64,000 bases of DNA from a bacterium (GTDB taxonomy: Bacteria > Zixibacteria > MSB-5A5 > GN15 > FEB-12). Shown here piece after piece: positions 540 through 40,062 of the stretch. The notes beneath the pieces are model-generated. The model had not been told where the DNA came from, ran no database searches, and saw nothing but the letters and a program-made list of their open reading frames with translations. The stretch covers positions 18,936 to 82,935 of the forward strand of contig JBDRNJ010000068.1 in NCBI GenBank assembly GCA_043811375.1, read 5' to 3'. Each line of letters opens with the position of its first letter. Within the stretch, counting starts at the first letter, position 1. Both the position numbers and the translations under genes were made by a program.

Positions 540-623
540 AAAAACCCTCCTTATCATGGCCGACTGTCTGCTTCTGCCACTGGGGCAGGTACCGACAGCA
601 CAGCCCATTTCCGAAAACCTGTA

Positions 624-13659: not shown

Positions 13660-13826
13660 TGGGGTCGGGTGACCCCTTCAGATTTGTTTGGGGGTGGATT
13701 CCTGTGGGCGGCAGATGTCCACATCTGCCCCAACTTCGTGCCGTCAGGTGACCCTGCCTGACGGCGGAAGTCAAGCGGGGCGATCTGAAGATCACCCCGC
13801 CAAATAACAATGTAGGTAGATGTCTA
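13660..13826. repeat. Cluster of REP-like palindromes
   Basis: GGGGTC-GGGT-GACCCC; GGCAGATGTCCACATCTGCC; GCCGTCAGG-TGACCCTG-CCTGACGGC; GCGGGGCGATC-TGAA-GATCACCCCGC. Confidence 0.6.
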
Positions 13827-16800
13827 CTTCAGCAGAATCATCTTCCTTGATTCAACGTAATCACCCGCCTCCAGGCGATACAGATACACACCGCTGGCAA
13901 CATCGCTGCCATCCCAAGTCACGGTGTGAATCCCAGCCTCGTAGTGACGATCAGCTAATGTCGCCACCACCTGTCCCATGACATTGAAGACCTGTAGCTT
14001 CACTTCGGAAGCAATCGGCAGAGCAAAGCTGATCTCGGTGATTGGATTAAACGGGTTAGGGTAGTTCTGTGTCAACCCGTACGTAACCGGTATCTCTGCC
14101 TGTTTATAAGCGATATTGGCAATTGACAGAGGAATCACCCCGGCTGCTACCTGACGGTTGTTGTTAATCTCATCGCAAATTGTTTTTGCCGTTTCATGGT
14201 CACCCACGGGGTCATCGATCAGGTTGTCACAATAAGTGATTGCCTGCGTCACGGTGGCACCATCCACACTGATGATTTCCGTCTGGCTGAGCTTTCCACT
14301 GGCCACGTTTAGAAGCAATGCCATTAACTGCTGTTTTGCCCGAGCTGTCATGCCAACATTGCCCTTGAGGTTCAGCAGCTCTTTTGCTGCCTGGAGCTTG
14401 TCGTCACATGAGCCCGAAATCGGCGGTTGATAAATGATAACCTGATTGATGGCATTGCCGTTGAAATGCGCCTCGATCAGATCCAGGTAGCTGCAGAGAG
14501 TCGCCGCGTCGATTTGGGCACTACCCTTACCCCCTGTTGCTACACCAACCTGGTGTTTCCAGAAGCCGATGGTCCTCGGAGAGGCGGTGATTTCCACACA
14601 GGTGAGCGCAAAATCGACATTCACTGTATCACCACCGACTATCGTAGTAGCAATTACCTCCGGAGAAACGTAGTAACCCAAAGGCGTTACTATCGTGAAG
14701 GTGTAGTCCCCAGCAAGTATTTCACACATTTCGTAATAACCATTAGCATCGGTTACGGCGATGTCAATTAAGGTTCCGACGCCGTCAAATATGTCAATGC
14801 CTACACCCAATAGTCCAGTACCAGGGGCAGGGCAGTTGGCCGTCACATAACCCGCAACGCATCCAAAAGGTAGAGGAATGATCGAAACTATGGCATTTGT
14901 CCTCGTGATTTCTGGTACACTGGGGAAATAGACGGTGGCGAAGTTTATAATGTCAGTTCCTACCGGCGCGTCACCTCTGACATTGACACTAAAGTAGAAG
15001 CTGCCTCCCTCTTCGGGGCCAACCTCACCGACAAACCAGGTAATCGTTCGAGTCGAAGGGTTATAGGTACCTTCACCGCCCAGGGACAACGTCAGATCGT
15101 CCACGTCTTCATCCAACACGTCCGTAATATAGACACCAAAAGCAATTCCTTCGCCTTCGTTCTCGAATTCAACCTCATAGTTTAATGTTTGCCCCGGCTG
15201 CACATTGCCTTCAGGACCGTATTTGATGTTGGGGTCATGGGCAACGGTCATTTCTACTGTTGAAGTTTGCTCAGGAATGCTTGTAGGTGTGTAATTATAA
15301 TGCTCCCGCAACCCTCTGATTATCTCGTTTATTGACATGTCTGGTGAAAATGTTAGCTCTCCATCGGAGGTTGTCCAACCATTCTTAAGACCTTCAGGAG
15401 AATATTTGATTTTATATAACAATTTGTACATCTCTCTCCAATACTGCACATTCCCGTAAATCGGTGAAACTTGATATTCAATTCTGGCTCGCCCAAGGGC
15501 AGCTATTAATATACCTTCAGATAATACATCTGCTACCATTGCAAGAGATATAGCTTCCCCCCAAGGACTTGGAATTGCATACGTAATCAACCCCCATAAA
15601 GGATCTAGCGTTTCTTTATCTTCGTGGGTTAGACCTGGTGTAGAATGTTGGAAAACCGAGTCTGCTTCTTTTTTTGAGAAAAGCCATATTTGGCTGGCTA
15701 ATTGAGTGCCCATTGGTAAACCCCAAAATAGTTCTGTTTGAAAACTTAAATATTCTATTGATTTTGGGGGAATATTATTGAAATCCCATCGGATCATGTG
15801 CATAACATCATCATACATACCTGGGGAGGTAAGCTGCACAATGTCAGCTAAAGTAGGGGGTATACCGATTAAAGTAGTATTTTCTGCTGTCTTTATTCCA
15901 TCATTCCTCAATTCGATAACATAAGTTATTGTCTGTCCAGGGCTTGCTCTTCCAGGTCCCCAGATTGTAACTTTCAAATCAGCCATTGGGGGAAGACCAA
16001 GATCAACTCTTTCTATGTCTAAGAATAGGATTCTTGGGAGGCTACTTTCATCTAAGGTGGCGGTTAGAATACCAAAGAGGGGATTGTCAAAAAGCCCTTT
16101 CAATTCTACTCTTCCCGGAGAGACAAGGTTATCGTATGTCCAGCCTTCTCCGGCCCCAGATTCTGAGACATAAGAAATTATTGAAAAGCCTTCTCCAGAA
16201 TATGGGTTGGTTTCCTCAACCACTCTAAGATGAGTCAAAACAGTGCTCAAGGACCCAATGTAATCGCCATAGACATTTCCTTCGAGGTTGGTTTGCAGGA
16301 TATAAAGTTCTGTAGCGGGGAATTCAGAACTGCTGTGGTAAGACACAGTCCCATTTAAGTTGATAGTCGCCGAGGTAATTGTACCTCCAAGCCGACCTAT
16401 TTTCCAGGTAGCTTGATATTGGTCATAAGTGTCACTTCCTGGCATAGTTTCGGTTAGATATCCCTCAACAGTGGCTGAGATTTCTCCTGATGTTGCACCT
16501 TTTAGATAAATCTTTCCCTCTTGAGGCTTGAGGAATAGGGCTCCCTTCCAATCACCTGTATAGGAAATCCCTCCCAGCGTAGCTTCCCACTCACCTTTAG
16601 AAAATCCCTTACCGGCAAAGGATCCGGTTGTGATACTAACGATTTCAAAGTTGGTGAAATTGAGGGTGCTGTTGAAATCACCGCTCACTACAACATTGTC
16701 AAGGACGGCATTCTGACCAAGGAGAGTTTCAAACAAAGTGGATTCTGTAAAAGATTTTTCAATGGCATAGGAACCAATAACATTCATAAGGACGGAAACG

Positions 16801-17588
16801 TTGTCAGATCCCGAATTCGCCACCGCCAGGTCAAAATCGCCGTCGCTGTCAAGGTCGGACGAGAAAACTGAACGGGGATAATCCCCGACCCCATAATTGA
16901 CCGCCGGGGCAAATGTCCCGTTGCCGTTGTTCACCAGGATGGAGACGTTGTCAGAATTATCGAAGTTCGCCACCGCCAGGTCATTGACCTTATCCCCGTT
17001 AAGGTCGGCTGAGAAAACTGAAGTGGGAAAATACCCGGCCCCATAATTGACCGCCGAGGCAAATGTCCCGTCGCCGTTATTCAGCAGGATCGAGACGTTG
17101 TTAGAATGGGCATTCGCCACTGCCAGGTCGCGGTCGCTATCCCCGTCAAGGTCAGCTGAGAAAACTGAAAAGGGATTATCCCCGGCTCCATAATTGACCG
17201 CCGCGGCAAATGTCCCGTCGCCGTTGTTCAGCAGGATGGAGACGTTGTTAGACCAGGCATTCGCCACTGCCAGGTCGTTGTCGTTATCCCCGTCAAGGTC
17301 GGCTGAGAAAACCGAACCGGGATGATCCCCGGGCCCATAATTGACCGCCGGAGCAAATGTCCCGTCGCCGTTGTTCAGCAGGATCGAGACGTTGTTAGAA
17401 TGGGAATTCGCCACTGCCAGGTCATTGTCGTTATCCCCGTCAAGATCGGCTGAGAAAACTGAATGGGGCCCATCCCCGACCCCATAATTGACTGCGGTGT
17501 CGAACTGGGGCTCAACGGCAAGACTGATGCCGGCTAGAGCCAGCACCGTGATTGATAGAATCAATGTAAAAGACATTGCGTCTTTCAT
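13824..17588 (-). CDS. Large secreted protein: five FG-GAP repeats, unknown domain, DUF11-like, variable core, DPN-type domain, carboxypeptidase-regulatory-like domain, T9SS type A C-terminal sorting domain
   Basis: Signal peptide; SADLDGDNDNDLAVAN repeats; PGQTITYVIELRNDG; AHDPNIKYGP...EFENEG; C-terminus LTQNYPNPFNP...GVYLYRLEAGDYVESRKMILLK. Confidence 0.88.
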   Translation of the reverse strand: MKDAMSFTLILSITVLALAGISLAVEPQFDTAVNYGVGDGPHSVFSADLDGDNDNDLAVANSHSNNVSILLNNGDGTFAPAVNYGPGDHPGSVFSADLDGDNDNDLAVANAWSNNVSILLNNGDGTFAAAVNYGAGDNPFSVFSADLDGDSDRDLAVANAHSNNVSILLNNGDGTFASAVNYGAGYFPTSVFSADLNGDKVNDLAVANFDNSDNVSILVNNGNGTFAPAVNYGVGDYPRSVFSSDLDSDGDFDLAVANSGSDNVSVLMNVIGSYAIEKSFTESTLFETLLGQNAVLDNVVVSGDFNSTLNFTNFEIVSITTGSFAGKGFSKGEWEATLGGISYTGDWKGALFLKPQEGKIYLKGATSGEISATVEGYLTETMPGSDTYDQYQATWKIGRLGGTITSATINLNGTVSYHSSSEFPATELYILQTNLEGNVYGDYIGSLSTVLTHLRVVEETNPYSGEGFSIISYVSESGAGEGWTYDNLVSPGRVELKGLFDNPLFGILTATLDESSLPRILFLDIERVDLGLPPMADLKVTIWGPGRASPGQTITYVIELRNDGIKTAENTTLIGIPPTLADIVQLTSPGMYDDVMHMIRWDFNNIPPKSIEYLSFQTELFWGLPMGTQLASQIWLFSKKEADSVFQHSTPGLTHEDKETLDPLWGLITYAIPSPWGEAISLAMVADVLSEGILIAALGRARIEYQVSPIYGNVQYWREMYKLLYKIKYSPEGLKNGWTTSDGELTFSPDMSINEIIRGLREHYNYTPTSIPEQTSTVEMTVAHDPNIKYGPEGNVQPGQTLNYEVEFENEGEGIAFGVYITDVLDEDVDDLTLSLGGEGTYNPSTRTITWFVGEVGPEEGGSFYFSVNVRGDAPVGTDIINFATVYFPSVPEITRTNAIVSIIPLPFGCVAGYVTANCPAPGTGLLGVGIDIFDGVGTLIDIAVTDANGYYEMCEILAGDYTFTIVTPLGYYVSPEVIATTIVGGDTVNVDFALTCVEITASPRTIGFWKHQVGVATGGKGSAQIDAATLCSYLDLIEAHFNGNAINQVIIYQPPISGSCDDKLQAAKELLNLKGNVGMTARAKQQLMALLLNVASGKLSQTEIISVDGATVTQAITYCDNLIDDPVGDHETAKTICDEINNNRQVAAGVIPLSIANIAYKQAEIPVTYGLTQNYPNPFNPITEISFALPIASEVKLQVFNVMGQVVATLADRHYEAGIHTVTWDGSDVASGVYLYRLEAGDYVESRKMILLK
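16780..17500 (-). repeat. Five intragenic tandem repeats of 147-150 nt encoding FG-GAP blades
   Basis: Anchor (g/a)acgttgt recurs at 17388, 17241, 17094, 16944 and 16797 (spacings 147, 147, 150, 147). Confidence 0.9.
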
Positions 17589-18370: not shown

Positions 18371-18448
18371 CAATCTCACCACGTTGCTGTCAGCGCGGGC
18401 TGACTGACGGCGGTTGTTCCGCGCCGACGGCGACCAATGGAGGCCGCT

Positions 18449-20908
18449 ATGAGGCGAGTTTTTTTGCGCTTCTTATTGCGGTCTGTCTCCGGCGCGATGG
18501 GAGTTCGGGACAGATGGCACGCGGTGTTTACCTTTCACGCAGGACACAGAGATTGTCACCCTGAGCGGAGTCGGAGGGAGAGCCCGGCAGACCGGGGATA
18601 CCAGATTGCCGATCTGGGAAGTCTTATCAGAATCTCCGGGCTTTTGACCTGCATTCTTTTTATTCTTGCCGTACAGGTGATGGCTCAATCGATCACAAGA
18701 TTAAGAGGGTACGTGTACGATGCCGACGATGGAATCCCCGTTGTTCGGGCGAAAGTCGAACTGCAAGCGACAGATTACCGGGTTTCCACCGATGATTTCG
18801 GTCGGTTCAGTTTTGACAACGTCCCCCCTGCCGGTTACAGTCTGAAGATCACCGCCGCCGGTTACGAGGATTACGTTGTCGAACAGGTTCATCTTACCGG
18901 GGACATAACCCGCCAGGTGGCGGCACCGCTTGCAAAGAAGGAGTACTATCTTGAGGGGGTCACGGTCACCGGCAGGTATCAACCTCTCTCCAGCGACAAG
19001 GTGACCGTAATCGAGCGCCGGCAAATAGCAGAGCTCCATCCCGGCAGTGTCTCGGACCTCCTCGAATCAGTGCCGGGTGTTTTCGTTCAGCGATCGGGGG
19101 GAGCGACGGGGCAGGCACAGGTGCGTATCAGGGGGAGTGATCCGAAACATGTGCTGGTTCTGGTCGATGGTCAGAAGATCAACCCTTCGGGCAGCGGCGT
19201 GGCCGACCTGAATACCATCCCGGTCGAGACGGTCGAACGGATCGAGATTCACAAAGGGGGCGCCTCAGCCGAGTTTGGCCCCGACGCCCTCGGCGGAGTG
19301 ATAAACATCACCACCCACCAGCAGGTTATCACGCACAAGCCATCGGCTGAGTGGTGCGTGAGAAGGGGGGATTGGGGGTCTGAGTCCAACACGCTGTCAG
19401 CATCGAACCTGGTTAGTTTCGATGGTCTGTCAACCAGGTTTGCCTTCAACTCACGGAAATCGGACGGCGATTTCGATTTCAACTATACAGTTGAGCCACG
19501 AAACAAGGTCTATGAAGGGACCCGTATCAACAACTTCACGGACTCATACAGCTACTTCGGTTCCGGCATTTACCAGTTGGCTGCTCAATCCAAACTGAAG
19601 GTTTCAGGCCAGGTGTACAAAGCGAAAAGAGGTCTTCCGGATCGGGCCTCAAAACAGAATGCGTATGCATTTGCGGAAGACAGGCGAAAACTAATTTCAG
19701 TCCGGTACGAAATCGGACAGGCACAGAAGGTTCGTGGGGAAGCGCAGATAGGTTTTTCCCAGTTCGAGCAGTATTTCTGGGATTTGGCCAGTGCGTCGCC
19801 GGTAAGTCGTTTTGAAAGTAGACACACTAACGACATATTTACTCTTCAGGTTGTCGGCGTTGCCCACCCCTGGATCAGCAGCGAGACGCACCTCGGAGTG
19901 CAGGTCTCACGAGACATCCTTTACCACACAGACTACCTGCGACCGCAGTTGAGCATGGGTAAAGCTGTCCGCGACGGCTATGCCGCTTTTGTCACCGGCA
20001 AGCAGCGTATCGGATTGCCCGCTTATGTTTTCTTCGACGACGTCTCGATGGATTTTGCCCTGCGTTATGACGAGGCAACAACCGGCAAGGACTCAACTTC
20101 GTGGCAGGACCCGGGTAAATCGCATTCAGTGGATCAATGGTCGCCCAAGATCGGCGCCGCGCTGTCAAAAGGTGAAAAGGTTTCGTTGCTGGTGCGCGCC
20201 AGCTATGGTAAATCATTTCGTTTACCTTCGGTTAACTCCCTGTTCTGGAGGGGCGATATTCGTTCGCGCGGCAATCCCAACCTGAGGCCGGAAAGAACCG
20301 AGCACTCGGAGGGCGGGATGGAACTTACCGGTTCCGTCGCATCGTTGAGCTTCAGCGCGGGTATGACCTGTTTCCACTCCCGGGTTAGTGATCTGGTAGT
20401 GTGGCAGGCGGGTTACGGTGGTGTGTGGACTCCGGTTAATCTCGAATCAGCTCTTATCACAGGGCATGAAGAGTACATCACGATTGGCTTCATGGATAAG
20501 ACACTGGAGATACAATATCAAAACACGATTACCACCGCTCAGAATAAAGTTCCCGGACATAACTCGTACGACAAGAGACTCACCTTTACACCCCGTTACG
20601 TTACCGGCGTAACGGCGCGGCTGAGGCAACGCTGGAGACAGACCATCGTTTATGCGTCTTATGCCGTCCGGTTGGTGGACATACGGTATGCCCTGTCGAG
20701 CAACACCAGGTGGTATGATGCCTACCGCATCGATGACCTTGGTTTTGGTCTCAAGGTCGGTTTCTACGAGCATTGGCGTTTGGCCTTTGATGTCAAGGTC
20801 TATAACTTAAACGATGAAAGTTACGTACTCATGACGCACTGCCCGATGCCCGACAGCGAATGGGACATAGGTCTTAAACTGTCGTACGGGGTGCAGCAAG
20901 AGTGGTAG
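18449..20908 (+). CDS. btuB: TonB-dependent receptor, probable cobalamin transporter BtuB
   Basis: Carboxypeptidase-regulatory-like N-domain, plug (VRIRGSDPKHVLVLVDGQKIN, ERIEIHKGGASAEFGPDALGGVINI), barrel with NPNLRPE; riboswitch context. The start at 18449 (SD GGAGG) is uncertain. Confidence 0.85.
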   Translation: MRRVFLRFLLRSVSGAMGVRDRWHAVFTFHAGHRDCHPERSRRESPADRGYQIADLGSLIRISGLLTCILFILAVQVMAQSITRLRGYVYDADDGIPVVRAKVELQATDYRVSTDDFGRFSFDNVPPAGYSLKITAAGYEDYVVEQVHLTGDITRQVAAPLAKKEYYLEGVTVTGRYQPLSSDKVTVIERRQIAELHPGSVSDLLESVPGVFVQRSGGATGQAQVRIRGSDPKHVLVLVDGQKINPSGSGVADLNTIPVETVERIEIHKGGASAEFGPDALGGVINITTHQQVITHKPSAEWCVRRGDWGSESNTLSASNLVSFDGLSTRFAFNSRKSDGDFDFNYTVEPRNKVYEGTRINNFTDSYSYFGSGIYQLAAQSKLKVSGQVYKAKRGLPDRASKQNAYAFAEDRRKLISVRYEIGQAQKVRGEAQIGFSQFEQYFWDLASASPVSRFESRHTNDIFTLQVVGVAHPWISSETHLGVQVSRDILYHTDYLRPQLSMGKAVRDGYAAFVTGKQRIGLPAYVFFDDVSMDFALRYDEATTGKDSTSWQDPGKSHSVDQWSPKIGAALSKGEKVSLLVRASYGKSFRLPSVNSLFWRGDIRSRGNPNLRPERTEHSEGGMELTGSVASLSFSAGMTCFHSRVSDLVVWQAGYGGVWTPVNLESALITGHEEYITIGFMDKTLEIQYQNTITTAQNKVPGHNSYDKRLTFTPRYVTGVTARLRQRWRQTIVYASYAVRLVDIRYALSSNTRWYDAYRIDDLGFGLKVGFYEHWRLAFDVKVYNLNDESYVLMTHCPMPDSEWDIGLKLSYGVQQEW

Positions 20909-23179: not shown

Positions 23180-23359
23180 GTCGGTTCCCTTAGACTAAGC
23201 TCCCCGGAGTCAGCTCCGGTGGTGATCCGTCAGCGCCGCCCAAACAGCAGTTATGGACCTTAGCCGACAGCCTTGTGACATTTATGGGGGGGGTTGCTTT
23301 TCCGGCGATATCGGCATAGATTACAGGCTCCTGAACATGACAAGACTGAGGTACAACAT

Positions 23360-25102
23360 ATGAAGTGCTCTAAACTGACGGCAGTTTGTCTGGCAACCCT
23401 GTTGATCGGGTGTGGCCCGGAATTCTTATCGCAACGGAATATCGATCAGCACGATTATATCGTAGCGCAGGCGGACACATTGTACTCGATAACTATACCG
23501 CAGCTTTACCGGGTGCTGGAACAAACGGAGCGGGCTCGTTACGGGGGCATGATTACGGCTGAAGAGGTGGCGGACGTTCTGGACAGTATCTTGTGTGACA
23601 CACTGGCCGGATTTCGAGCCGACGATCTCAATCTGGGTGATTACTACAACTATTATAACACCTACGAGAAGCGTTATTTCCGGTACCTGATCACCAGGTA
23701 CTTTGAAGAGGAAGTATACAAGAAAGTCAGTGTCGACTCACAGGAAGTAGTCGATTTTCGTGCCGGCCGTCCGGATTTGTTTGCACTTGACGAACAGGTT
23801 CTGGTACGCCAGATATTAATATCGCCGGTTGGCCTGAAAAACGGTCCCGATTCAGTTAATTTCCGAACTCTGACTGAGGAACGGTTGAATCAGGAGATGG
23901 TCAAATATGTCTACCAGATACGCCGTATGCTCGATTTTGGGGTGGCGTTTGAGGAAGTAGCCGGCAAGTACTCTCACGACGAGATGTCGGCCCGGCAAGG
24001 CGGGTTAGTGGGTTGGACGAAACGGAGAAAATACGAGGACCCGTTCGATTCGATTGCTTTTTCGATACAGCCCGGGGAAATCTCTGAGCCGTACCAGGAT
24101 AATTCCGGCTGGCATATTCTATATATCGAGGAACGTATCGACGAGGGACTGGCCAACCTCGACAAAGAACAATACGAAATTGCCGAAGCGTCGCTTTCGA
24201 TGAGCAAGGGCAGTCGGAGAATGAATCCGTTGCGGGATTCCCTGTTTGATCAAGTGGAATTGGCCTACAACGAAGCTGTTTTGGACAGCAACATTGATTT
24301 TATGGAGATCACTACCTGGGCCGCGATCGTCAACGGACAGGACACAATCAACGTGGACGAAATGGGGCGGTTGGAGCGGTCGTATCGTGGGTATCGCAAT
24401 GTCAAGAATACGACGCCGGAAATGAAAAAAGAGATAATTCTAACCCTGGCGGAGCGTTATTCCTATGTACAGGGTGCTCGGGCGGCAGGGATTGATACTA
24501 TACCGGACGTGGTGGCCGAAGAAAAAGCTCTGCGGCATAAGTACTCCAAGGAAATTATTGCCAAGCAGGGTCGGTCGTTGGGGTGGATACCCCCGAAAGA
24601 CCTGGTTCAGAAGTACTTCGATGAACACATCGAGGAATTTACGGTCGAGGCCGGTGTCCACGTGCAGCACATTATCGTCGACGATTCGGTGTTCGGGGAA
24701 TTCGTGAGAGATCAGGCTATGGCCGGGGTCGATTTCCTTGAGTTGGCTAAGGAGTATTATCCGGGCGAACCCGGTGTCAGGGCCGACCTTGCCGATCTTG
24801 GTATGATCGGTCCCGAGGACGTGCCGCCGGAGCTCTACACCGCGGCATCGGTAACCCCGGTCGGTGTCGTGACACATCCGGTCAAGACTCAATACGGATA
24901 CCATATCATCAAGGTAGTTAGTCGCACTGAACCGACTCGTTTGCATCATGTCAGCAGTAAGATAAATGAAATACTGAGAAAGCAGCAGGCGCGGGAAATC
25001 TTCAACCGATACCGGGATGATCTGTATACCCGGTATAATGTGCGTTTCAAGGGGAAACTCTACCCTGTTCATCTCAGGCCGATGACCAGCCGCAACGAGT
25101 AG
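23360..25102 (+). CDS. Lipoprotein peptidyl-prolyl isomerase with two parvulin (PpiC) domains, SurA/PrsA-like
   Basis: Lipobox LLIGC; FEEVAGKYSHD..SARQGGLVGW; GWHILYIEE; VHVQHIIV; TQYGYHIIKV. Confidence 0.88.
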   Translation: MKCSKLTAVCLATLLIGCGPEFLSQRNIDQHDYIVAQADTLYSITIPQLYRVLEQTERARYGGMITAEEVADVLDSILCDTLAGFRADDLNLGDYYNYYNTYEKRYFRYLITRYFEEEVYKKVSVDSQEVVDFRAGRPDLFALDEQVLVRQILISPVGLKNGPDSVNFRTLTEERLNQEMVKYVYQIRRMLDFGVAFEEVAGKYSHDEMSARQGGLVGWTKRRKYEDPFDSIAFSIQPGEISEPYQDNSGWHILYIEERIDEGLANLDKEQYEIAEASLSMSKGSRRMNPLRDSLFDQVELAYNEAVLDSNIDFMEITTWAAIVNGQDTINVDEMGRLERSYRGYRNVKNTTPEMKKEIILTLAERYSYVQGARAAGIDTIPDVVAEEKALRHKYSKEIIAKQGRSLGWIPPKDLVQKYFDEHIEEFTVEAGVHVQHIIVDDSVFGEFVRDQAMAGVDFLELAKEYYPGEPGVRADLADLGMIGPEDVPPELYTAASVTPVGVVTHPVKTQYGYHIIKVVSRTEPTRLHHVSSKINEILRKQQAREIFNRYRDDLYTRYNVRFKGKLYPVHLRPMTSRNE

Positions 25103-29812: not shown

Positions 29813-32800
29813 GTGCTAAAAAAACCGATACTAACTAATACTGTGAGTGCCTCACTGCGACAACTCGTATGGGTTGCTGTCGTCGGCTTGTTGATAGCCC
29901 GAGTTATGGTGTGCCCGACATCAGCGGCAACCCGTTATACCGGCTACCTGCAGTCACCGCCGTCACCCGTTGCCGCGTACGATATCTCTCCGTACCGGCC
30001 CAATGTGTCTCTGTCACTGCGGGCTCCTCAGTTGTACGGCTACAGCCTGCAAAGCAAGTTGGATTTTGTCAGATCCAACCATATCACCACAGCCCTGACC
30101 TTTAATTCGTTTTACTATCGCCACGGACAACTGAAAAAGTGGCTTATTCCGGTAACTGTGAACGCCCCGCAGTATCTGGCTTTCCGCAAGTCAAAGCGAG
30201 TCGATGAGAAATTCTCGCAATCATTGACCGGCGCCATCGCCAATCCGGGACAGGCCGCCGGACGTGCCGGTCTGGGTCTTTCGGTCGGTCTGCCCAAGCG
30301 GCTAAACCGGATTTTTGGCGAAGGCGGCGCCGGGTTGCGGGTATCAGGGTATCGCCGCATTATGTTTTCCGGTCGTTCCCAGTGGAGCGATGCCGCCCAA
30401 TCGGATACTTACCAGCAAAGTAAGTTTCCCTCACTGAACATGGACCAGTCCTACCGGTTTGATATCAATGGTACTATCGGCACCAAGATTTCAGTGAAAG
30501 TGTCCGAGGATTCCAAGCAGGATATTCCCCTGGCCAACCGCTTGATAATCCGCTACAAGGGTGACGAGGATGACGTGCTCAAGTCAATTGAGGCCGGCAA
30601 CACCAACCTGTCCTTACCGCGAACCAAATTCGTCGGCTACTCGTCCAACATCCGTGGTCTCTTCGGGCTCAAGACGGAAGCCCAGGTCGGTAAACTGAGA
30701 CTGATCGCTATCGCCTCGCAGGAGCAGGGATCGTCGGAGCAGGTGTCGATTACTCCCACCGGGGAAGAAAGTGCTGAGCGCTTCCGTGACTACAACTACG
30801 TTAAGGCTCGCATCTTTGACCTCGGAGACTCGGCGGCTTTCAGTGAAGGCGACTCGGTAATCAGCTTGTTTGCTTACGAGGTGGTGAGCACGCTCAATTC
30901 GGACGACGTCTTGCTTCCGGCCTGGCTGGTGGTTGATCCTGGTGACACCACGAAGTACCTTGACGAAGATGTGGATTACAGGTCCAGCACGGAGTCCGGT
31001 GCCAAATTGATCGACCAGGCCACCTATACTTTCTACAGCTTCCCTGATCGCAACCAGCACTATGTCGTCTTCAGCGGATCTCGTATCAAATCGGTTGGGG
31101 TTTACATGAGGGTATTGCATTCAGACGGTTCAGAAAGTACCGTGGGCGACATCTCCGGCGAATCACTATTGCTGAAGCTGTTGTACCACCAGGACCCCAG
31201 TCCGCAGTATCATACCTGGGGTTTGATGTGGCGTAACTGCTACCCGATTCCGCGTGGTGTAACGGCTGACGATATTGAGATCAGAGTGTTTAAGGGTTCC
31301 TCCGGGAATGAGGGGACGTCATCCAGTTTTGACTACCAGGAGCTGGAGGGTCGCACACAAAAATACCTTGAGATTCTGGGATTGGATCAGTACAACGAGC
31401 GCGATGACAAATTGGCCGACGGCAAGTTTGATGAACGCCTGGAAGTCTTTCGACCGGAGTGGGGGCTGATAATATTCCCGCACCGCAGACCGTTCGCAGC
31501 CGATACGTTCTATGTCGACGCCAACGGTAAAACCACTGACACTCTGGCAGAAAAGACACCCGATATCTACGACTACACTTCAGGTACTGACCAGGGTCAG
31601 GCCACCATGTATTATGTCCAACTGGTTACGCGGGCACGCAGTTCGACTATCCGGCTGGGGCACGCCAATATCATTGAAGGATCGGAACGGGTTACGGTCA
31701 ACGGCCGAGTAATGCAGCGCGGCAAAGACTACAACATCAAGTACGACTTCGGCCAGTTGACACTGACGTCGGACGAAGCTATGGATCCCAACGCCGATAT
31801 CAACGTTCAGTTTGAATATGCCCCTTTCCTGGCGCTACAGAAAAAGACGCTGCTGGGCATGCGAGCGGAATATATCTACAACAAGGATCTGGATTTCGGC
31901 GCCACCATGCTTTACAAGTCAGATAAGGCCCAGGAGCGAAAACCACGGGTGGGACAGGAAACCTCGCGGGCAGTCATCTATGACCTTGACGGTTCCTGGC
32001 GAACGCAGACCAATTTCCTGACATCGCTGGCCGACGCTTTGCCGCTGGTGGAAACCGAGACGCCCTCCAGCTTCCGCATAGAGGGTGAAATAGCGCAGTC
32101 ACATCCTAACCCCAACGTCGAAGGCAAGGCTTATGTGGATGATTTCGAAGCCGCCCAGGAACAGCTCTCGCTGGGGACCCAGCGAACGACCTGGAAGCAC
32201 GCCTCCAAACCGTTTGATATGCAGGCTGGCTTCAACAAGGGCAAGCTTCTCTGGCACGCCCCTCGCGACCGCCGCAACGTGACCGAGGTATGGGACGTTG
32301 ATCCCAAGCAGGGCGAAGGCAGTATCTTTACTATGCGCATGATATTCCGTCCCCAACCCGACAGTGCCGGCGACCCGAGCTGGGCCGGAGTCATGCGCGG
32401 CTTTGCCGGCCGAATTGACGCCGAACGAGTGCAGCACCTGGAAATCCGCGCCCGCGTCAGTGAAAGCGCTCGAGGTAAATTACACATCGATGTCGGCAGC
32501 ATCAGTGAGGATGTCGATAACGACGGCAACGCCGATACGGAGGATAACATCTTCCGCAACGGGACGCTGGACGTGGAAGAGGATGTCGGCCTGGACGGTC
32601 TGGCTGACGTGTTCGAAGACGGGTATGACACGGACACGCTGCCCGATCCCAACGACGACAACTGGTTTTTCCTGGGTGACGGCACGTGCCCGTTACCGGA
32701 CAACCAATGTAACAACGTCAACTGGGACGATGAGTCGGTCCGTTACGAATGGCTCAACGGCACCGAGGGTAATCGCGACGATCCCGGTTGGATCGGTATC

Positions 32801-35800
32801 CCCGACGAAGAAACACTAAACAGGATGCGCGGTTTCAATAACATCAACTCATATTTCTCCTACGTCATCGACTTCGATGACATCGAACAGTTTCGGGTCG
32901 AGGGCTCGAATAAATACGATTGGTGGACCTATCGCATCCCCATCAAGGATCCGCTGGTGACTGATACGGCCCGGGAGGGCGACATAGAGCCGATGTGGAA
33001 CGAAGTCAGCCACGTGCGGGTCTGGTTTGAGTCGGAACCGTTCCAGGAGGTCCACGATACGTTAGAGATAGCAGCCTGGTATTTCGTGCAGTCGAACTGG
33101 CGGGATACCATCACCTGCAACGGGGAACCGGACTGTGGCACCAACTTCGAGGTGGCTTCGATAAGTGAGCAGGACCGCACTTTCTCACCGCCGCCGGGTG
33201 TGGAGCCGTTTAAGGATCCCAATTACAACGTGGTGGAAGCACAGCGCGGGCTGCTGTTGAAGTTCGAGGGTTTTACCCCCGAAGACACCTGCCTGGCCGT
33301 CAAGAAGCTCATTACCGTCGACAAGTACTCCGGTTACCGCCGTCTGGAGATGTATGTGTACGGTGAGGACGTTGCAGCGATCCAAAATGAACAGGTGATG
33401 TTTGTTTTGCGTGTCGGCAGCAACGCCGACAACTTCTACGAGCAACGGCGGATCATTAAGCCGGGCTGGCACGAAGGAAACCATATCAATTTCGACTTCA
33501 ACGATGTGACGGGACTGAAAGACGCCGCCCTGCGCGATCGATCGCGACAGGAGTATTCTTCTATCGACACCACCAGCGCCGATGGAGTTTATCGTGTTCG
33601 GGGCAACCCCAATATCAACGACGTGAAGTACTTCGCGGCCGGTGTGATCAACCGGTCGGAGGCGGCCGGTATCACCGATCCGTCTCAACAGGTGATAGAT
33701 GGAGAAATCTGGCTGGACGAGCTGCGCGTTACCGAGGTTCGCCGCGATGTCGGCACGGCGGCGCGCGTATCGTGCGGCGGCACGGTGGCCGATCTGATGA
33801 GTTACAGTTTCTCTTATGATTACAAAGACGCCTATTTTCGCGGTCTCTCTTCGGCAACGCGTGGCGGCTCCAACAATAACCTGGGCAGTGGCAGCAACTC
33901 CACTAACATAGGCTACAACGGCCGGCTGAGTCTGCACCTGTTTCTGCCGAAATCATGGGGAGCCAACATCCCGTTGAGTTATTCTCACTCCAAGTCGGTG
34001 ACGACGCCTTTGTTGCGCACGAGTTCCGACATCGTGCTGCCGGAGGAAATTCGCAAGGAAGAGCAATCCATCTCCGAGTCAAACAGCATCAGAATTTCGG
34101 AATCGTTCAACCGGCAGGGCAAAAATCCGCTGTTTAACCTGCTGCTGAATCGGTTGAAGACAGATTTGAATTACAGCCGGGGAACACAGAAATCAGTGAA
34201 CCGGCCGTACGGTTTATCCGAAAGTTACCAAGTCGGCTCCAGTTTCAACCTGGGTGTTAAAAAGCCGCCAACACTGCCTCTGTTTTTCTGGACCAAACCG
34301 TTGCCGATCCTGAAGCGGGTATCGGGCTCGCGGCTGGGGCTGTACCCCAGCAATTGGACCGTCAACGGCACCTACAACCGGCAACTGTCGATTAGCGACG
34401 ATATCAACTACAATCGTCTCTCCACACTCAAGCGGGACTTCTCCGGACGGATGAACATAAGCTACAATATTTTCGACAACATGGATGCCAGCCTCGATCT
34501 CAGGACCACTCGGGACTTGAGTAATCCCGATGAGGTAAACGTCTCTCTCAACAACTTCCGGCTGGGTATCGAGACACAGTTCAATCAGTCTTTCAGTATG
34601 GGGTACAGTCCGAACCTGGTGAGTTTCTTCGGTACCGCCTTTTCCTACGGTGCCAACTACTCCGACAACTATTCCCGTTCGTCCAAATCGCGGCAGTCGC
34701 GCATGACTCGCAAGTGGAGCGTCAGCGGCAAGTTTGAGCACCTTAAGTTCCTGAAACCGGAAAGCTGGATTAGTTCGGGTGCCGGTGACAGCAAAGGTAG
34801 CGACCGGCGACGAAAGGGAACTGAGGACGCAGGCGACAAACCGGGCCGACCGTTTTACGACCCGCCATTGGCGGTGTTGCGCTTCCTTACCGGCTGGATA
34901 AATCCGATCGCGTACAATTTCTCGGAAGGCTACAATGCTTCGTTACCCGGTATGCTCCAGCGGCCGGAATGGAAATACCGTTTTGGCGTTGAGCGCGAAA
35001 CGACCGTGCCGACTGTTTCAGAGGGACGCGCCATCAGTTCCGGCGAGGATCAAGCGTACGGTCTTTCCTCAGGTTTCCGTGTCCTGGGAGGGATTGGCAC
35101 CACCGTGAAGTTCAGCCGATCCATCAGTCGGGATATCGTCAAACAGGGCTCACGCTATGAACACGTGTCCACTTCCTGGCCGGATCTCCAGATTCGCATC
35201 AGTAAGTTCGAGAAACTGCCCCTTATCAAACCGGTCGTGAACAAGTTCATTGATGTTTTCTCGCCCCGGACCGGCTATGGCCGTCAGACCAAGGAAGAGT
35301 ATGATATCGATGGCGGTTTTCTCAGGAGCCGGTCCGTCAGCATCAATCACAGTCCGCTGTTGGCGCTGAACTTCAATCTGGTGCGATCATTGTCGTTGTC
35401 CGGAACCTACACGCTGTCCAGGGACAACGCTGAGAAATACAGTCCGGCCACCGGCGCTTTCCAGTCGGAAACGCGTGGTGAGCGGCGGGCTATCAGTTTG
35501 TCGACCAAATACTCTTTCTCGGCGCCGAGCGGTTTCTCGGTGCCGATACTGGGTAAGATTCGTTTTCGCTCCACCATGAGCATCACCGTTGACGTTAAGA
35601 AATCCAAAAGTCTCAATGAAACCAAAAGGGCCGGTGAAGGCTGGGTGATATCGACCGACAAGTCTGATTTCTCGGTCAATACCAATATAGCCTACACTTT
35701 CAGTCAACAGATCAAGGGTGGCCTCAGAGGCGGATGGCAGGATTCGGCTGATAACTTCAGAAACCGAAACAATCATGTCCGACAGCTTGAAATCTGGGCT

Positions 35801-35815
35801 GAGATTCGCTTCTAA
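29813..35815 (+). CDS. sprA: T9SS outer-membrane translocon SprA/Sov
   Basis: 2000 aa; FGEGG, IRYKGDEDDVLKSIEAGNTNL, LFGLKTEAQVG, GSERVTVNGR...GKDYNIKYDFGQL, YVDDFE, EIWLDELR, terminal EIRF. Confidence 0.92.
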   Translation: MLKKPILTNTVSASLRQLVWVAVVGLLIARVMVCPTSAATRYTGYLQSPPSPVAAYDISPYRPNVSLSLRAPQLYGYSLQSKLDFVRSNHITTALTFNSFYYRHGQLKKWLIPVTVNAPQYLAFRKSKRVDEKFSQSLTGAIANPGQAAGRAGLGLSVGLPKRLNRIFGEGGAGLRVSGYRRIMFSGRSQWSDAAQSDTYQQSKFPSLNMDQSYRFDINGTIGTKISVKVSEDSKQDIPLANRLIIRYKGDEDDVLKSIEAGNTNLSLPRTKFVGYSSNIRGLFGLKTEAQVGKLRLIAIASQEQGSSEQVSITPTGEESAERFRDYNYVKARIFDLGDSAAFSEGDSVISLFAYEVVSTLNSDDVLLPAWLVVDPGDTTKYLDEDVDYRSSTESGAKLIDQATYTFYSFPDRNQHYVVFSGSRIKSVGVYMRVLHSDGSESTVGDISGESLLLKLLYHQDPSPQYHTWGLMWRNCYPIPRGVTADDIEIRVFKGSSGNEGTSSSFDYQELEGRTQKYLEILGLDQYNERDDKLADGKFDERLEVFRPEWGLIIFPHRRPFAADTFYVDANGKTTDTLAEKTPDIYDYTSGTDQGQATMYYVQLVTRARSSTIRLGHANIIEGSERVTVNGRVMQRGKDYNIKYDFGQLTLTSDEAMDPNADINVQFEYAPFLALQKKTLLGMRAEYIYNKDLDFGATMLYKSDKAQERKPRVGQETSRAVIYDLDGSWRTQTNFLTSLADALPLVETETPSSFRIEGEIAQSHPNPNVEGKAYVDDFEAAQEQLSLGTQRTTWKHASKPFDMQAGFNKGKLLWHAPRDRRNVTEVWDVDPKQGEGSIFTMRMIFRPQPDSAGDPSWAGVMRGFAGRIDAERVQHLEIRARVSESARGKLHIDVGSISEDVDNDGNADTEDNIFRNGTLDVEEDVGLDGLADVFEDGYDTDTLPDPNDDNWFFLGDGTCPLPDNQCNNVNWDDESVRYEWLNGTEGNRDDPGWIGIPDEETLNRMRGFNNINSYFSYVIDFDDIEQFRVEGSNKYDWWTYRIPIKDPLVTDTAREGDIEPMWNEVSHVRVWFESEPFQEVHDTLEIAAWYFVQSNWRDTITCNGEPDCGTNFEVASISEQDRTFSPPPGVEPFKDPNYNVVEAQRGLLLKFEGFTPEDTCLAVKKLITVDKYSGYRRLEMYVYGEDVAAIQNEQVMFVLRVGSNADNFYEQRRIIKPGWHEGNHINFDFNDVTGLKDAALRDRSRQEYSSIDTTSADGVYRVRGNPNINDVKYFAAGVINRSEAAGITDPSQQVIDGEIWLDELRVTEVRRDVGTAARVSCGGTVADLMSYSFSYDYKDAYFRGLSSATRGGSNNNLGSGSNSTNIGYNGRLSLHLFLPKSWGANIPLSYSHSKSVTTPLLRTSSDIVLPEEIRKEEQSISESNSIRISESFNRQGKNPLFNLLLNRLKTDLNYSRGTQKSVNRPYGLSESYQVGSSFNLGVKKPPTLPLFFWTKPLPILKRVSGSRLGLYPSNWTVNGTYNRQLSISDDINYNRLSTLKRDFSGRMNISYNIFDNMDASLDLRTTRDLSNPDEVNVSLNNFRLGIETQFNQSFSMGYSPNLVSFFGTAFSYGANYSDNYSRSSKSRQSRMTRKWSVSGKFEHLKFLKPESWISSGAGDSKGSDRRRKGTEDAGDKPGRPFYDPPLAVLRFLTGWINPIAYNFSEGYNASLPGMLQRPEWKYRFGVERETTVPTVSEGRAISSGEDQAYGLSSGFRVLGGIGTTVKFSRSISRDIVKQGSRYEHVSTSWPDLQIRISKFEKLPLIKPVVNKFIDVFSPRTGYGRQTKEEYDIDGGFLRSRSVSINHSPLLALNFNLVRSLSLSGTYTLSRDNAEKYSPATGAFQSETRGERRAISLSTKYSFSAPSGFSVPILGKIRFRSTMSITVDVKKSKSLNETKRAGEGWVISTDKSDFSVNTNIAYTFSQQIKGGLRGGWQDSADNFRNRNNHVRQLEIWAEIRF

Positions 35816-35861
35816 GTGTTTTTCCATTGACAGTCAACGAACGTCCACAGTAATTAACGGT

Positions 35862-36788
35862 ATGATCTGTCGTGGTATAGTGCCGGCATTGATACTGACG
35901 CTGCTGGTTTGTTGTGGGAGTTCCCAGGAACCGCCACCGGCATTTAATGGCGAGAGATCTTTTGATTACCTGGTCCAACAGGTTGCCCTGGGACCACGGG
36001 TGCCGGGGACAAGGGCTTCGGTTGAATGCCGGGACTTGTTTGTACGCCACTTTGGGAATCTGGGGGCCGAGGTCGACTCACAGGTATTTTCCTTTTTTGA
36101 TCCCTATTCTCAAACCACCATTCCGCTGGTTAATGTAATAGCTAAATTCAGCGGATCCGATCGAAAGGCTGATCGCATTATTCTGGTGGCTCACTACGAC
36201 AGCCGCCCACGAACTGATTACGCCCATGACCCGGCGCTGAGAGAGGAGCCGATAGACGGCGCCAACGATGGCGCCTCGGGAACGGCGATTCTGATGGAAT
36301 TGGGTAATCTCTTTGCCCGGCGGGCACCGCCGATAAATGTCGATCTGGTGATGGTAGACGGTGAGGACTGGGGTCGGGAGGGCGACCACGAATACTACCT
36401 GCTGGGGTCGCGCGAACTGGCCCGCCGCGGCGTGCGGGGCAGGTACCTCTTCGGTATTGTTATCGACATGGTGGGTGACTCATCGCAACAGATTTTTCGG
36501 GAGGGTTATTCGGAGAGATTCTGCTATTCTCTTAATGATGCTGTCTGGAGCGCCGCGGCTCGTTTGAACATTACTACTTTCCATGACTCAGTCGTTTATA
36601 CGGTATTGGACGATCACCTGCCCCTGATAGCTGCCGGCGTGCCGACTATCGACATTATTGATTTCGACTATCCCTATTGGCACACCGAATTTGATACGCC
36701 TGACAAGTGTTCACCGACGGCACTATCCAATGTCGGACTAGTGCTGGTGGAACTGATCTATGATCCGACGCTATGGCCCGAAACGTGA
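35862..36788 (+). CDS. M28-family lipoprotein, glutaminyl cyclase-like
   Basis: Lipobox LVCC/CG; AHYDSRP, GANDGASG, DGEDWG, DMVGD, DDHLPL, DFDYPYWHT. Confidence 0.85.
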   Translation: MICRGIVPALILTLLVCCGSSQEPPPAFNGERSFDYLVQQVALGPRVPGTRASVECRDLFVRHFGNLGAEVDSQVFSFFDPYSQTTIPLVNVIAKFSGSDRKADRIILVAHYDSRPRTDYAHDPALREEPIDGANDGASGTAILMELGNLFARRAPPINVDLVMVDGEDWGREGDHEYYLLGSRELARRGVRGRYLFGIVIDMVGDSSQQIFREGYSERFCYSLNDAVWSAAARLNITTFHDSVVYTVLDDHLPLIAAGVPTIDIIDFDYPYWHTEFDTPDKCSPTALSNVGLVLVELIYDPTLWPET

Positions 36789-38161
36789 TAAAAAAGCTGC
36801 GAGAGTTCCCGGCTGTCGAGGAGTTGCTGCAACACCGACAACTGCGCTCCGGCGTGGAGGCGATTCCGCGACCGCTGGCGGTACAAATCGTCAGAGAGGT
36901 AGTCGCCCGCCACAAAGAAATGTTGCGCCGCAAGTCGGAGACGGTGTCTCTAAGCCGAATGCGTCAGGAAATCATGACGGCGCTCACAACCGCCCGGCGG
37001 GTGGGAACCTGCCGGGTAATCAATGCCACCGGCATCATTGTGCACACCAACCTGGGTCGGGCGCCCCTGTCGGAGGCGTTTTTCGAGTCTGTCCGGGAAG
37101 TCCTGAGTGGTTACGGCAACATTGAGTTTGATCTGAACCGTGGAACCCGGGGTGGACGGGGCGCTGCCTGTGAACGGTATCTGTCGCTCCTGGCCGGCAC
37201 CGAAAGCGCCGCCATCGTCAACAACTGTGCCGCCGCCCTGCTGCTGATTCTCAACAGCCTGGCCAATCGTAAACAGGTGATTGTCTCGCGGGGTGAATTG
37301 GTGCAAATCGGCGGTGGCTTTCGTATCCCGGATATCCTCAGGAAGTCCGGCGCCAGGTTACACGAAGTAGGCACCACCAATATAACTACCATCGCCGATT
37401 ATGAGGATGTTGTCGATGAGAAGACCGGACTTATTCTGAAAGTACACCAGAGCAATTTTGTGCAGGCCGGTTTCACCGGCAAAGTATCGGTGAAGGAACT
37501 GGTGAAGCTCGGCGCCGGGTACGACTTGACGGTTGTCAACGATCTCGGCAGCGGCGTCTTTGTCAACACCGGAAAGATCATAGGCTACTCGGAGCCGACC
37601 GTGCAGCAGTCGGTGCGAGACGGCGCCGACCTGACCTGCTTCTCCGGCGACAAGATGCTCGGCGGCGTTCAGGCCGGGTTGATTGTGGGACGGGCGTCAC
37701 TTATCAAAAAAATAAAGCGCAACCCCCTCTTTCGCACGGTGCGTGTCGACAAGGTGGTGTTGGCGCTGATGGAAAAGTTACTGACCAGTTACTTAAACGG
37801 TACCTGGCAGACGGAGATCAAACTCTGGGCACTGTTGTCCCTGCCGGAGTCGGAGTTGTACCGCCGGGGTCGACGGCTGTTGAAGCAATTAGGCCATCCG
37901 GCGGGACTATCCGTAGAAGCCACCCGGGGCTTTGTCGGCGGCGGTGCCCTGCCGGAGTCCGGAATCGCGTCGGTAGGTCTCGTATTTGGCCCGCCGCATC
38001 GAGCCACTTCTTTAATGCGTCGTTTCCGGATGATGAATCCGCCTGTCATCGGCCGCATCGATGATGATTGTTTTATCCTCGATCTGAGAGCAGTGGCGGA
38101 AGACCAACTTCTACTGCTCAAAGACAGTGTGGCTGAAGCGATCGGACCGCAGAAAAAATGA
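36773..38161 (+). CDS. selA: L-seryl-tRNA(Sec) selenium transferase
   Basis: VINATGIIVHTNLGRAPL, SRGELVQIGGGFRIPD, EVGTTN, FSGDKMLGG. Confidence 0.97.
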   Translation: MARNVIKKLREFPAVEELLQHRQLRSGVEAIPRPLAVQIVREVVARHKEMLRRKSETVSLSRMRQEIMTALTTARRVGTCRVINATGIIVHTNLGRAPLSEAFFESVREVLSGYGNIEFDLNRGTRGGRGAACERYLSLLAGTESAAIVNNCAAALLLILNSLANRKQVIVSRGELVQIGGGFRIPDILRKSGARLHEVGTTNITTIADYEDVVDEKTGLILKVHQSNFVQAGFTGKVSVKELVKLGAGYDLTVVNDLGSGVFVNTGKIIGYSEPTVQQSVRDGADLTCFSGDKMLGGVQAGLIVGRASLIKKIKRNPLFRTVRVDKVVLALMEKLLTSYLNGTWQTEIKLWALLSLPESELYRRGRRLLKQLGHPAGLSVEATRGFVGGGALPESGIASVGLVFGPPHRATSLMRRFRMMNPPVIGRIDDDCFILDLRAVAEDQLLLLKDSVAEAIGPQKK

Positions 38162-40062
38162 TAGTCATCGGTACGGCGGGGCACATTGATCACGGCAAAT
38201 CGGCCATTGTCAAACGGCTGACCGGAACCGATCCGGATCGTCTCCCGGAAGAAAAAAAACGCGGCATGACGATTGATCTCGGTTTCGCATTCTATCGCAC
38301 GCCGTCGGGAGACGACATTGCTTTCGTCGATGTTCCCGGGCACGAGCGGTTTGTCAAGAACATGATCGCCGGTGCCGGCGGTATTGATGTAGCCATGCTG
38401 GTAGTGGCCGCTGACGACGGCTGGATGCCGCAGAGCCAGGAACACTTTCAGGTTATCCGGCTGCTGGGGATCAAGTCCGGTTTCATTGTTATCAACAAGA
38501 CCGATCTGGCCGACAGTGACTGGCTTCAACTGCTCAAGCAGGACATCAGAGATAAAGTGCGCGGTTCGTTTCTGGCCGAAGCGCCGGTTCTGTCGGTGTC
38601 GGCCGAAACCGGTGACGGCTTTGATGCCCTGCGCCGGCACCTTGACCGACTGGCCGAACAGACCGCAACCGCCGGGGATATCGACCGAGCCCGTCTGTAT
38701 ATCGACCGATCGTTTGTGAGTCAGGGAGTCGGCGGCGTTGTAACCGGCACCCTGCGGGGCGGCAGGCTCTCGGTGGGGCAAACGGTGGCAGTGTGGCCGG
38801 CCATAACTGCCGGCAAGATTCGCTCTTTGCAGACCAATAACCGGGAAGTGTCCGTAGCACTGCCGGGACAACGAACGGCTGTGTCCTTTACCGGCGTTAA
38901 CCGGGAGGTACTGATTCGCGGGGGTGTTGTCTCCGACAGGCTGGACCTGTCCTTTTTCAGGGAACATCCGGTGCTGGCTCTTTCGGTGGAGGTCGTCTCC
39001 GAAGCGCCGGTGGCACTGGTTGATCGTCGTCGGCTGCTGGTTATTGCCGGCACCTCCGAGATGGAAGGGGAAATCCGACTGTTCGACCGTAAAAAGATCA
39101 GGCCGGGCGAAAAAGGTATCATGTTCTTCAAGCCTGACATCCCGCCGTATTGCCTCGTTGGGGACCACTACATTGCCCGGCTGCCGACACCGATGGTAAC
39201 ACTGGGCGGCGGTCGGGTACTGGATCACCTCACGCATTTCCCGCGACGGAAACAGTTGGATGACTATCGCTACCTGCTGTTCCGGCTGGACGGTGACATT
39301 CGCAGCCTGGTCGTCAGTGAACTGCAAAAGCGGGTAGTGGCTACTACCGATGACTTGCTGCGGGAAGCTGATTGCTCTGAGTCCGATGTTGGTGCGGTCG
39401 TGTCATCTCTGGTTGAGGAGAAGGTGTTCGGTATGTCCGGCCGGTACGTTTACCACGCCGATACAATTGAAACCGTCGGACACCGGCTCACTCAGGGAGT
39501 AAAGGAGCTTCTCGAAGCTAAGTCACACCTGGTCGGTCTTTCCTTCGAAGAGTTGACCAGGGTATCCGTGTTGGATGAGGTAACGCTGCGGGTGTTGCTG
39601 GACTACCTGGTGGCGGCCGGGCGGATGACGTTTGTTGCCGACAGGTACAATCTGGCCGGACGGAGCAGGGAGCTGAAAGGCGCCGTCAGGGAGGCTTATC
39701 GGTCTATTATGAGCAGTCTGCATGAGCAGCCCTATGCCCCGCCGTCATTGAGCACGCTGGCGTCCGGCAGCAAGAACCATAAGGAAGCCATCAAATACAT
39801 TATCGAGACGGGTGAGAGCTACAAGTGCGGGTCGGCCTTTCTGTTTCCGGCGGAGACGTGGCGCGAAATAGTAACTTTCATCAAAGAGAGCCTGAATAAG
39901 TCCGGGAAGCTGGCTGTGGCCGATCTCAGGGACCGGTTTGGCTTCACGCGCAAGTATGCCATTCCGATTCTGGAGGAAACCGACCGCATCAAACTGACCC
40001 GTCGCGAGGGCGATATTCGTGTCAAAGGAGATAAGTTTGCCGAACGGAACGCTGATTCATAA
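38158..40062 (+). CDS. selB: Selenocysteine-specific elongation factor
   Basis: [30 protein letters not shown]-terminal winged helix [19 protein letters not shown]. Confidence 0.97.

Follow-up and report, generated by a model that had tools for sequence, protein, structure and literature searches.

In a 64,000-nt stretch of a Zixibacteria genome (contig JBDRNJ010000068.1, C68:18936-82935; this whole stretch is hereafter the window), the gene sprA for the outer-membrane translocon of a type IX secretion system (T9SS) is directly followed by a gene of the M28 peptidase family which, judged from its sequence, very probably encodes a working glutaminyl cyclase (QC) made together with SprA. The same two genes stand side by side in several phyla. 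The genome, which comprises 3.56 Mb in 92 contigs and is labelled G000 in our comparisons, nevertheless shows, as far as predicted N-termini tell, no Q-rule, i.e. no general preference for glutamine at the first position (+1) after signal peptidase I cleavage as described for Bacteroidetes, and some of its relatives do without the cyclase. We consider it likely that sprA and QC were inherited as a unit and that the cyclase is a general enzyme which forms pyroglutamate but is dispensable.

The M28 protein matches the Pfam family PF04389 with 104.6 bits over residues 91-298. In a comparison with all chains of the Protein Data Bank (PDB) the best matches were the bacteroidal QCs BtQC (4fuu/7d1d, E 9.9e-44), TfQC (6qro), PdQC (3tc8) and PgQC (6qql/7cje, E 2.2e-39), whereas animal QCs (1e-7 to 1e-10) and true aminopeptidases (~4e-6) matched more weakly. 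Identity to the bacteroidal type II QCs is ~40% across the whole catalytic domain. The residues that distinguish bacteroidal QCs from two-zinc aminopeptidases have been described (PMC7948796), and the predicted ligands of a single zinc ion, Asp136, Asp169 and His274, align with PgAsp149, PgAsp183 and PgHis299, of which PgAsp183 is the aspartate specific to bacteroidal QCs that replaces HsGlu202 (PMC7948796). Glu168 aligns with the catalytic PgGlu182 (HsGlu201) and Asp202 with HsAsp248. As in PgQC, the first zinc-ligand aspartate is followed by a glycine (Gly137), where aminopeptidases carry Asn or Asp, and Trp273 precedes the His ligand as in QCs. In contrast, the three other M28 paralogues of the genome show the aminopeptidase pattern, EE and DDN (DDNGSG): the paralogues on contigs C6 and C19 have Glu-Glu and Asp-Asn/Asp-Asp, where the sprA-linked protein has Glu-Asp and Asp-Gly. 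A maximum-likelihood tree sets these paralogues off, by a long branch supported at 98/97, from a QC clade of 33 sequences, composed of the G000 protein, homologues from many phyla and three solved QCs. The M28 protein, described as QC-like in an earlier note on this DNA, thus groups with QCs and not with aminopeptidases, and all five motifs on which that description was based (HYDSRP, ANDGASG, DGED, DDH and YWHT) were located in the 308-residue protein (Table 1).

The long open reading frame (ORF) of the M28 gene opens at GTG 35718. We take ATG 35862 as the true start because the signal peptide begins there and because orthologues align from residues 1-14. With this start the spacer behind the sprA stop codon (TAA, 35813-35815) measures 46 nt and the QC gene begins at the 47th base past the stop, in agreement with the 47 bp given in the earlier note. 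No terminator-like hairpin was found in this 46-nt spacer, and co-transcription of sprA and the QC gene is plausible. The enzyme is probably a lipoprotein: Cys17/Cys18 directly follow the hydrophobic core, in the non-canonical lipobox context LLVCCG (LLVC/LVCC), and most orthologues carry a canonical [GAS]-C at the equivalent position. The QC of the KSB1 genome G046 (locus L046) has no lipobox Cys and would itself begin with Gln (GTLRS↓QTVPQFD; the arrow marks the cleavage site), and other non-lipoprotein QC orthologues (L063, L073, L085 and L057) also have Gln at the likely +1 position.

The pairing with sprA extends well beyond G000. Among 41 relatives from the same family and order, a full-length QC orthologue was found in 32, and 28 of these have sprA as the direct upstream neighbor of the QC, on the same strand; in the remaining QC-bearing relatives the two genes lie apart (G007 and G010) or are split across contigs (two genomes). 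The QC of G010 stays beside selA while sprA is found elsewhere, and in G007 selA also adjoins the QC, with sprA ~7 kb off on the opposite strand. On a wider scale we inspected 72 named loci of a species-representative collection, all of which extend 1 kb or more upstream of the QC and in which some labels of metagenome-assembled genomes (MAGs) are unreliable. The C-terminus of SprA was found upstream of the QC in 46 of the 72. By label these are Zixibacteria (13/13), Ignavibacteria-labelled MAGs (6/7), Cytophagia-labelled MAGs (4/4), KSB1 (2/3), Calditrichota (2/2), Eisenbacteria (2/2), Krumholzibacteriota (1/1), Gemmatimonadota (1/1) and Zhuqueibacter (1/1), among others, whereas the pairing was absent at the loci of Poribacteria, Planctomycetota, Armatimonadota, Kryptonia and Cloacimonadota in this set. 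The Bacteroidota sample consisted of 38 genomes of the phylum holding a Bacteroidetes-labelled MAG; all 38 carry a full-length SprA and a QC that is 37-56% identical to BtQC, and the two genes are adjacent in none of them. Hence, the genetic link between the M28 gene and sprA claimed from the window is real and widespread, whereas the synteny looked for across genomes of the FCB (Fibrobacteres-Chlorobi-Bacteroidetes) group holds in most Zixibacteria and several other phyla but not in the Bacteroidota sampled. The pairing is not due to chance. Since selA as the downstream neighbor of the QC is confined to this order of Zixibacteria, and the outer flanks vary across phyla, it is the two-gene pair that is conserved and not a longer block. 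Inheritance of an old sprA-QC unit is the most economical explanation of this conservation across phyla. In a literature search we found no paper describing the sprA-QC pairing, nor one treating Zixibacteria together with type IX secretion.

The earlier note had gone further and proposed that a Q-rule pathway operates in this lineage. In the original description of the rule, Bacteroidetes averaged 71% +1 Gln, and 332 of 334 lay above 48%, while other phyla such as Chlamydiae and Spirochaetes typically stayed below 20% and most Chlorobi below 9% (PMC5837995). To call the rule largely Bacteroidetes-specific, as the note did, is too strong, because the same paper reported 77% for Ignavibacterium album and 55% for Chloroherpeton (PMC5837995). 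We determined +1 Gln genome-wide with a home-made pipeline. A hexamer model served to call the genes (2849, with 88% coding), and signal peptides were predicted with a heuristic that requires a positively charged start, a hydrophobic core of 7-18 residues and no later membrane segment; lipobox-like candidates were removed. Cleavage sites were picked on positions -3 and -1 alone, blind to +1, and a looser measure counted any small-x-small↓Gln site among the candidates. Identical code was used for all controls. A first signal-peptide heuristic, which called 42% of the genes signal-peptide-like, was dropped in favor of the stricter one, and an expectation-maximization weight matrix over positions -6 to -1 was dropped because in training it moved to where the hydrophobic stretch ends.

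In G000, 36 of 291 blind sites expose Gln (12%, interval 9-17%), and the looser measure gives 17%. The corresponding values are 17/30 (57%) and 43% in the Bacteroidota genome G122, which differs from G000 in the blind measure with a Fisher p of 1e-7. In two further genomes with the sprA-QC pair, the blind and looser values are 9/24 (38%) and 45% for the KSB1 genome G046 and 2/22 (9%) and 12% for G045. Escherichia coli K-12 gave 1/15 (7%) and 16%; with 350 kb and 31 candidates it is a weak control, for which reason published values were used as well, and the control samples are small overall. The Gln signal of G046 (loci L200-L214) is of Bacteroidetes strength, with an excess of 0.58 Gln per candidate. 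The pipeline admits false positives, among them a Rossmann-fold protein and a MotB-like protein, and it under-reads: its 57% for the Bacteroidota control falls short of the 71% published as the phylum mean, and two of the five Gln sites of the window escaped it (owing to an incorrect start and to Pro at -3). We therefore put the true value of G000 at ~12-20%, at most ~25%. Such a value amounts to 4-6 times the 3.4% expected from composition and lies within the ordinary bacterial range. After small-x-small sites no residue exceeds its compositional share as much as Gln does (5.1 times background). Read by eye, 5-6 of ~29 readable N-termini of T9SS cargo (38 hits) start with Gln (~19%), as do two of the six TonB-dependent receptors of G000, so that neither class is clearly enriched in +1 Gln. 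Of the features by which Q-rule organisms are recognized, G000 has the QC (one of type II, none of type I), but its +1 Gln lies below ~48%. Judged by these predicted N-termini, there is no Q-rule in the G000 genome, and the proposed pathway finds no support.

What had suggested such a rule was the window itself, in which five of ten exported proteins expose Gln. On inspection all five sites are plausible, namely those of the cohesin-like protein (AWG↓Q), a TonB-dependent receptor (VMA↓Q), a TolC protein (PSA↓Q), an NfeD protein (VTA↓Q) and ORF 55569 (LAG↓Q). For the TonB-dependent receptor the Gln site probably arises from a TTG start at codon 70: the long ORF has an implausible leader of 69 residues, and the signal peptide TCILFILAVQVMA↓QSITR fits the TTG. 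For the other five proteins, reported to expose G, V, V, A and D, our reading gives N, V, D, V and A. The count of five in ten is correct for the window but not representative of the genome. At a probability of 0.15-0.20 per protein, five or more Gln in ten have a chance of 0.01-0.03, and about 0.4-1.4 such runs are expected genome-wide among ~44 sets of ten candidates. The window is a local high, and the choice of sites by eye also favored Gln. Ten proteins of one window are a poor basis for inferring a proteome-wide rule.

The M28 QC is missing from eight of the 41 relatives (G011, G012, G016, G017, G021, G029, G032 and G040), and all eight have kept sprA. The plant-type (type I) QC, PF05096, is confined to G001, G007 and G011; as a general substitute in the QC-less relatives it was rejected, because among these G011 alone has it, and in the other seven no known QC of either type was found. 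In G011 two plant-type genes stand in tandem, and both QC types are present together in G001 and G007. In G012 and G040, each a single-contig genome, the locus keeps the order recG-DUF1844-murB-sprA-selA-selB-amidohydrolase, with sprA directly before selA and a residual 83 nt (G012) or 54 nt (G040) at the position of the QC. The losses in G012 and G040 are clean excisions in two different families. The SprA of G012 would itself begin with Gln (VPAYA↓QSSG). Where the QC is gone, +1 Gln is not lower: the blind values are 14/73 (19%) in G012 and 11/36 (31%) in G040, against 12% in G000 and 14% in G027, which both carry the QC. The pooled values of 23% without and 12.5% with QC (p = 0.013) run opposite to what a dependence on the cyclase predicts; this difference gives no support to such a dependence and is otherwise not read as meaningful. 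Gln is kept in about half of the orthologues of the Gln-starting G000 proteins, with or without QC alike. A Q-rule organism is expected to need its QC; in this lineage, as its absence from eight relatives, seven of them with no known QC of either type, and the clean excisions at the two loci read indicate on comparative grounds, it is dispensable.

We propose that sprA and a gene for a lipoprotein type II QC formed a two-gene unit in an early ancestor of the FCB-group phyla. The two genes would be co-transcribed and the cyclase tethered to a membrane on its periplasmic side, where it could turn the N-terminal Gln into pyroglutamate on that minority of Sec/signal peptidase I substrates which expose Gln. 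These may amount to ~12-20% of the substrates, or ~50-80 proteins, including a few T9SS cargo and outer-membrane proteins. By analogy with PgQC, for which this was shown, pyroglutamate might shield those proteins from aminopeptidases. Several points weigh against this proposal. That the pair is so strongly conserved between phyla points to a closer functional bond with the T9SS than an enzyme of general purpose would require. The lipobox of the G000 QC is non-canonical. In addition, the low +1 Gln comes from a home-made pipeline with false positives and missed sites, so that the true value may reach ~25%, and the E. coli control, with 31 candidates, is small.

A possible, though tentative, extension of the proposal concerns the history of the pair. 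Pyroglutamate capping may have arisen together with type IX secretion, with the sprA-QC pair ancestral to the FCB-group phyla; KSB1 would have kept both the pair and the Gln preference, Bacteroidota would have kept the rule but scattered the genes, and Zixibacteria would have relaxed the rule, leaving the QC as a passenger of the sprA transcript that was repeatedly lost. The KSB1 genome, in which the pair coincides with a strong Gln signal resting on 24-31 proteins, fits the idea that rule and pair go together in some phyla and that both have relaxed in Zixibacteria.

It is unlikely that the QC instead acts specifically on SprA, on other parts of the T9SS or on cargo in transit, and that the pair was kept for this purpose. 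The persistence of the pair across several phyla while the outer flanks change, the short spacers or overlapping genes and the phylogenetic co-occurrence of Q-values and T9SS (PMC5837995) would all fit such a role. However, the likely signal peptidase site of SprA in G000 is CPTSA↓ATRY, so that the mature protein does not begin with Gln, and the T9SS cargo starts with Gln hardly more often than other exported proteins do. Moreover, the seven relatives without a known QC keep sprA, in two of them at a locus that reads otherwise intact, the two genes are unlinked in the sampled Bacteroidota, and experiments in Porphyromonas gingivalis spoke against pyroglutamate having a part in T9SS targeting (PMC5837995). 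Very unlikely is the explanation that the M28 protein is an aminopeptidase or other peptidase which resembles QCs without being a cyclase in this lineage. Pfam and NCBIfam label it just M28 or aminopeptidase, several of its nearest PDB neighbors bear the depositors' name 'leucine aminopeptidase', the gene is dispensable among the relatives, and the G000 protein lacks a 7-residue loop that holds PgPhe294, a residue for which Tyr270 or Phe268 may substitute. Against this stand the re-annotation of the deposited 'aminopeptidases' 4fuu and 3tc8 as single-zinc QCs (PMC7948796) and the hallmarks Glu-Asp, Asp-Gly and Trp before the His ligand, which the true M28 paralogues of the genome do not have. 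Least probable is a full Q-rule in which most signal peptidase I substrates expose Gln for the cyclase and the pathway is genetically coupled to the translocon: the five of ten window proteins, the 5.1-fold enrichment of Gln, the sprA-linked QC itself and the 38-45% of the KSB1 genome with the same pair speak for it, but they are outweighed by a +1 Gln in G000 that in the looser measure equals that of E. coli while the identical pipeline finds 57% and 43% in Bacteroidota, by a cargo value far below the 86% of P. gingivalis T9SS proteins (PMC10653852), by QC-less relatives with equal or higher +1 Gln and by Gln residues that are often not kept in orthologues.

The proposed sprA-QC unit bears on the relation between the Q-rule and the T9SS, which so far consisted of a co-occurrence in Bacteroidetes only, with the P. 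gingivalis experiments speaking against a direct tie. That several other phyla conserve a sprA-QC pair is evidence for such a link in the physical layout of genomes. As a counterweight, the pair can survive in a genome that uses Gln no more than E. coli does, and a lineage can lose the cyclase with sprA left untouched. With QC-bearing and QC-less sister genomes, Zixibacteria offer a natural experiment on the purpose of the cyclase, and on whether +1 Gln drives the retention of the QC or the reverse.

In the window the gene order around the pair is recG, DUF1844, murB, sprA, M28 QC, selA, selB, amidohydrolase and NfeD (Table 1). SprA matches TIGR04189 over its full length with 571.9 bits (cut-off 200) and PF14349 with 74.5 bits. 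The genome has 38 matches to the C-terminal Por_Secre_tail domain (TIGR04183), 35 of them above the cut-off; together with a SprA above its cut-off they make a working T9SS likely. Two proteins encoded in the window are such T9SS cargo, a protein of 1254 residues and the cohesin-like protein at the window edge, both of which end in a Por_Secre_tail domain. Encoded 4.7 kb upstream of sprA is a SurA-like protein that has the lipobox LLIGC↓G and three isomerase domains of the PPIC type. The SprA complex of Flavobacterium johnsoniae includes a prolyl isomerase. Directly after the QC gene follow selA and selB for selenocysteine incorporation.

Table 1 Features of the sprA-QC locus, its surroundings and the corresponding loci of relatives. 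Positions refer to the window unless a genome is named.
Feature	Position	Strand	Remarks
sprA/sov, T9SS outer-membrane translocon, 2000 aa	29813..35815	+	TIGR04189, PF14349
sprA-QC intergenic spacer, 46 nt	35816..35861	+	sequence reading
Type II (M28, bacteroidal-type) QC, 308 aa, probably lipoprotein	35862..36788	+	PF04389, PDB matches, tree
Signal peptide with Cys17/Cys18 (MICRGIVPALILTLLVCCG)	35862..35918	+	lipobox-like but non-canonical
HYDSRP motif, residues 111-116		+	
ANDGASG, residues 134-140	36261..36281	+	Asp136 aligns with zinc ligand PgAsp149 (6qql alignment)
DGEDWG (DGED = residues 166-169)	36357..36374	+	Glu168 and Asp169 compared with PgQC
IDMVG	36462..36476	+	Asp202, counterpart of catalytic HsAsp248
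LDDH (DDH = residues 250-252)	36606..36617	+	conserved in every aligned QC
YWHT, residues 272-275	36675..36686	+	Trp273-His274 align with PgTrp298-PgHis299 (zinc ligand)
selA	36773..38161	+	PF03841, 409.9 bits; start overlaps QC stop by 16 nt
selA and selB	36773..40062		
Cohesin-like protein	1..629	-	T9SS cargo
1254-aa protein	13824..17588	-	T9SS cargo
TonB-dependent receptor	18437..20908	+	
SurA-like protein	23294..25102	+	
QC-less locus of G012	G012:C1:2920001-2960000		L143-L144
QC-less locus of G040	G040:C1:1620001-1680000		L153-L155
Tandem plant-type (PF05096) QC genes of G011	G011:C16:16384-17867		relative without M28 QC

Compared with the known translocons, F. johnsoniae SprA and P. gingivalis Sov, the SprA described here has the same TIGR04189 signature well over the cut-off, but it measures ~2000 aa against ~2400 aa in the sampled Bacteroidota, and its gene is paired with a QC gene. 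A SprA of ~2000 aa is found in Zixibacteria, in KSB1 and in the pair-carrying 'Cytophagia'-labelled MAGs, and the sizes in sampled Bacteroidota run from ~2400 to 2750 aa. With the Q-rule of Bacteroidetes (PMC5837995, PMC10653852) G000 shares the combination of a T9SS with a QC that is probably a periplasmic lipoprotein, as well as Gln as the most over-represented +1 residue relative to composition. In contrast to the Bacteroidetes, where the Q-value exceeds 48% and averages 71%, it reaches ~12-20% in G000, the T9SS cargo of G000 starts with Gln in ~19% of the cases and not in 86% as in P. gingivalis, and the Zixibacteria relatives without QC do not have a lower +1 Gln. The cyclase itself shares with PgQC (PG2157; 6qql, 7cje), TfQC (6qro), BtQC (4fuu, 7d1d) and PdQC (3tc8) the M28 fold family, the predicted Asp/Asp/His zinc ligands, the catalytic Glu and Asp, the Asp-Gly and Trp-His pairs and, at the N-terminus, a signal peptide whose Cys may serve to attach a lipid. 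It differs from them in its Zixibacteria host, in the position of its gene directly after sprA, in the missing PgPhe294 loop and in residing in an organism without a Q-rule. Finally, while PgQC is reported to be essential, the QC gene of the lineage studied here appears dispensable.

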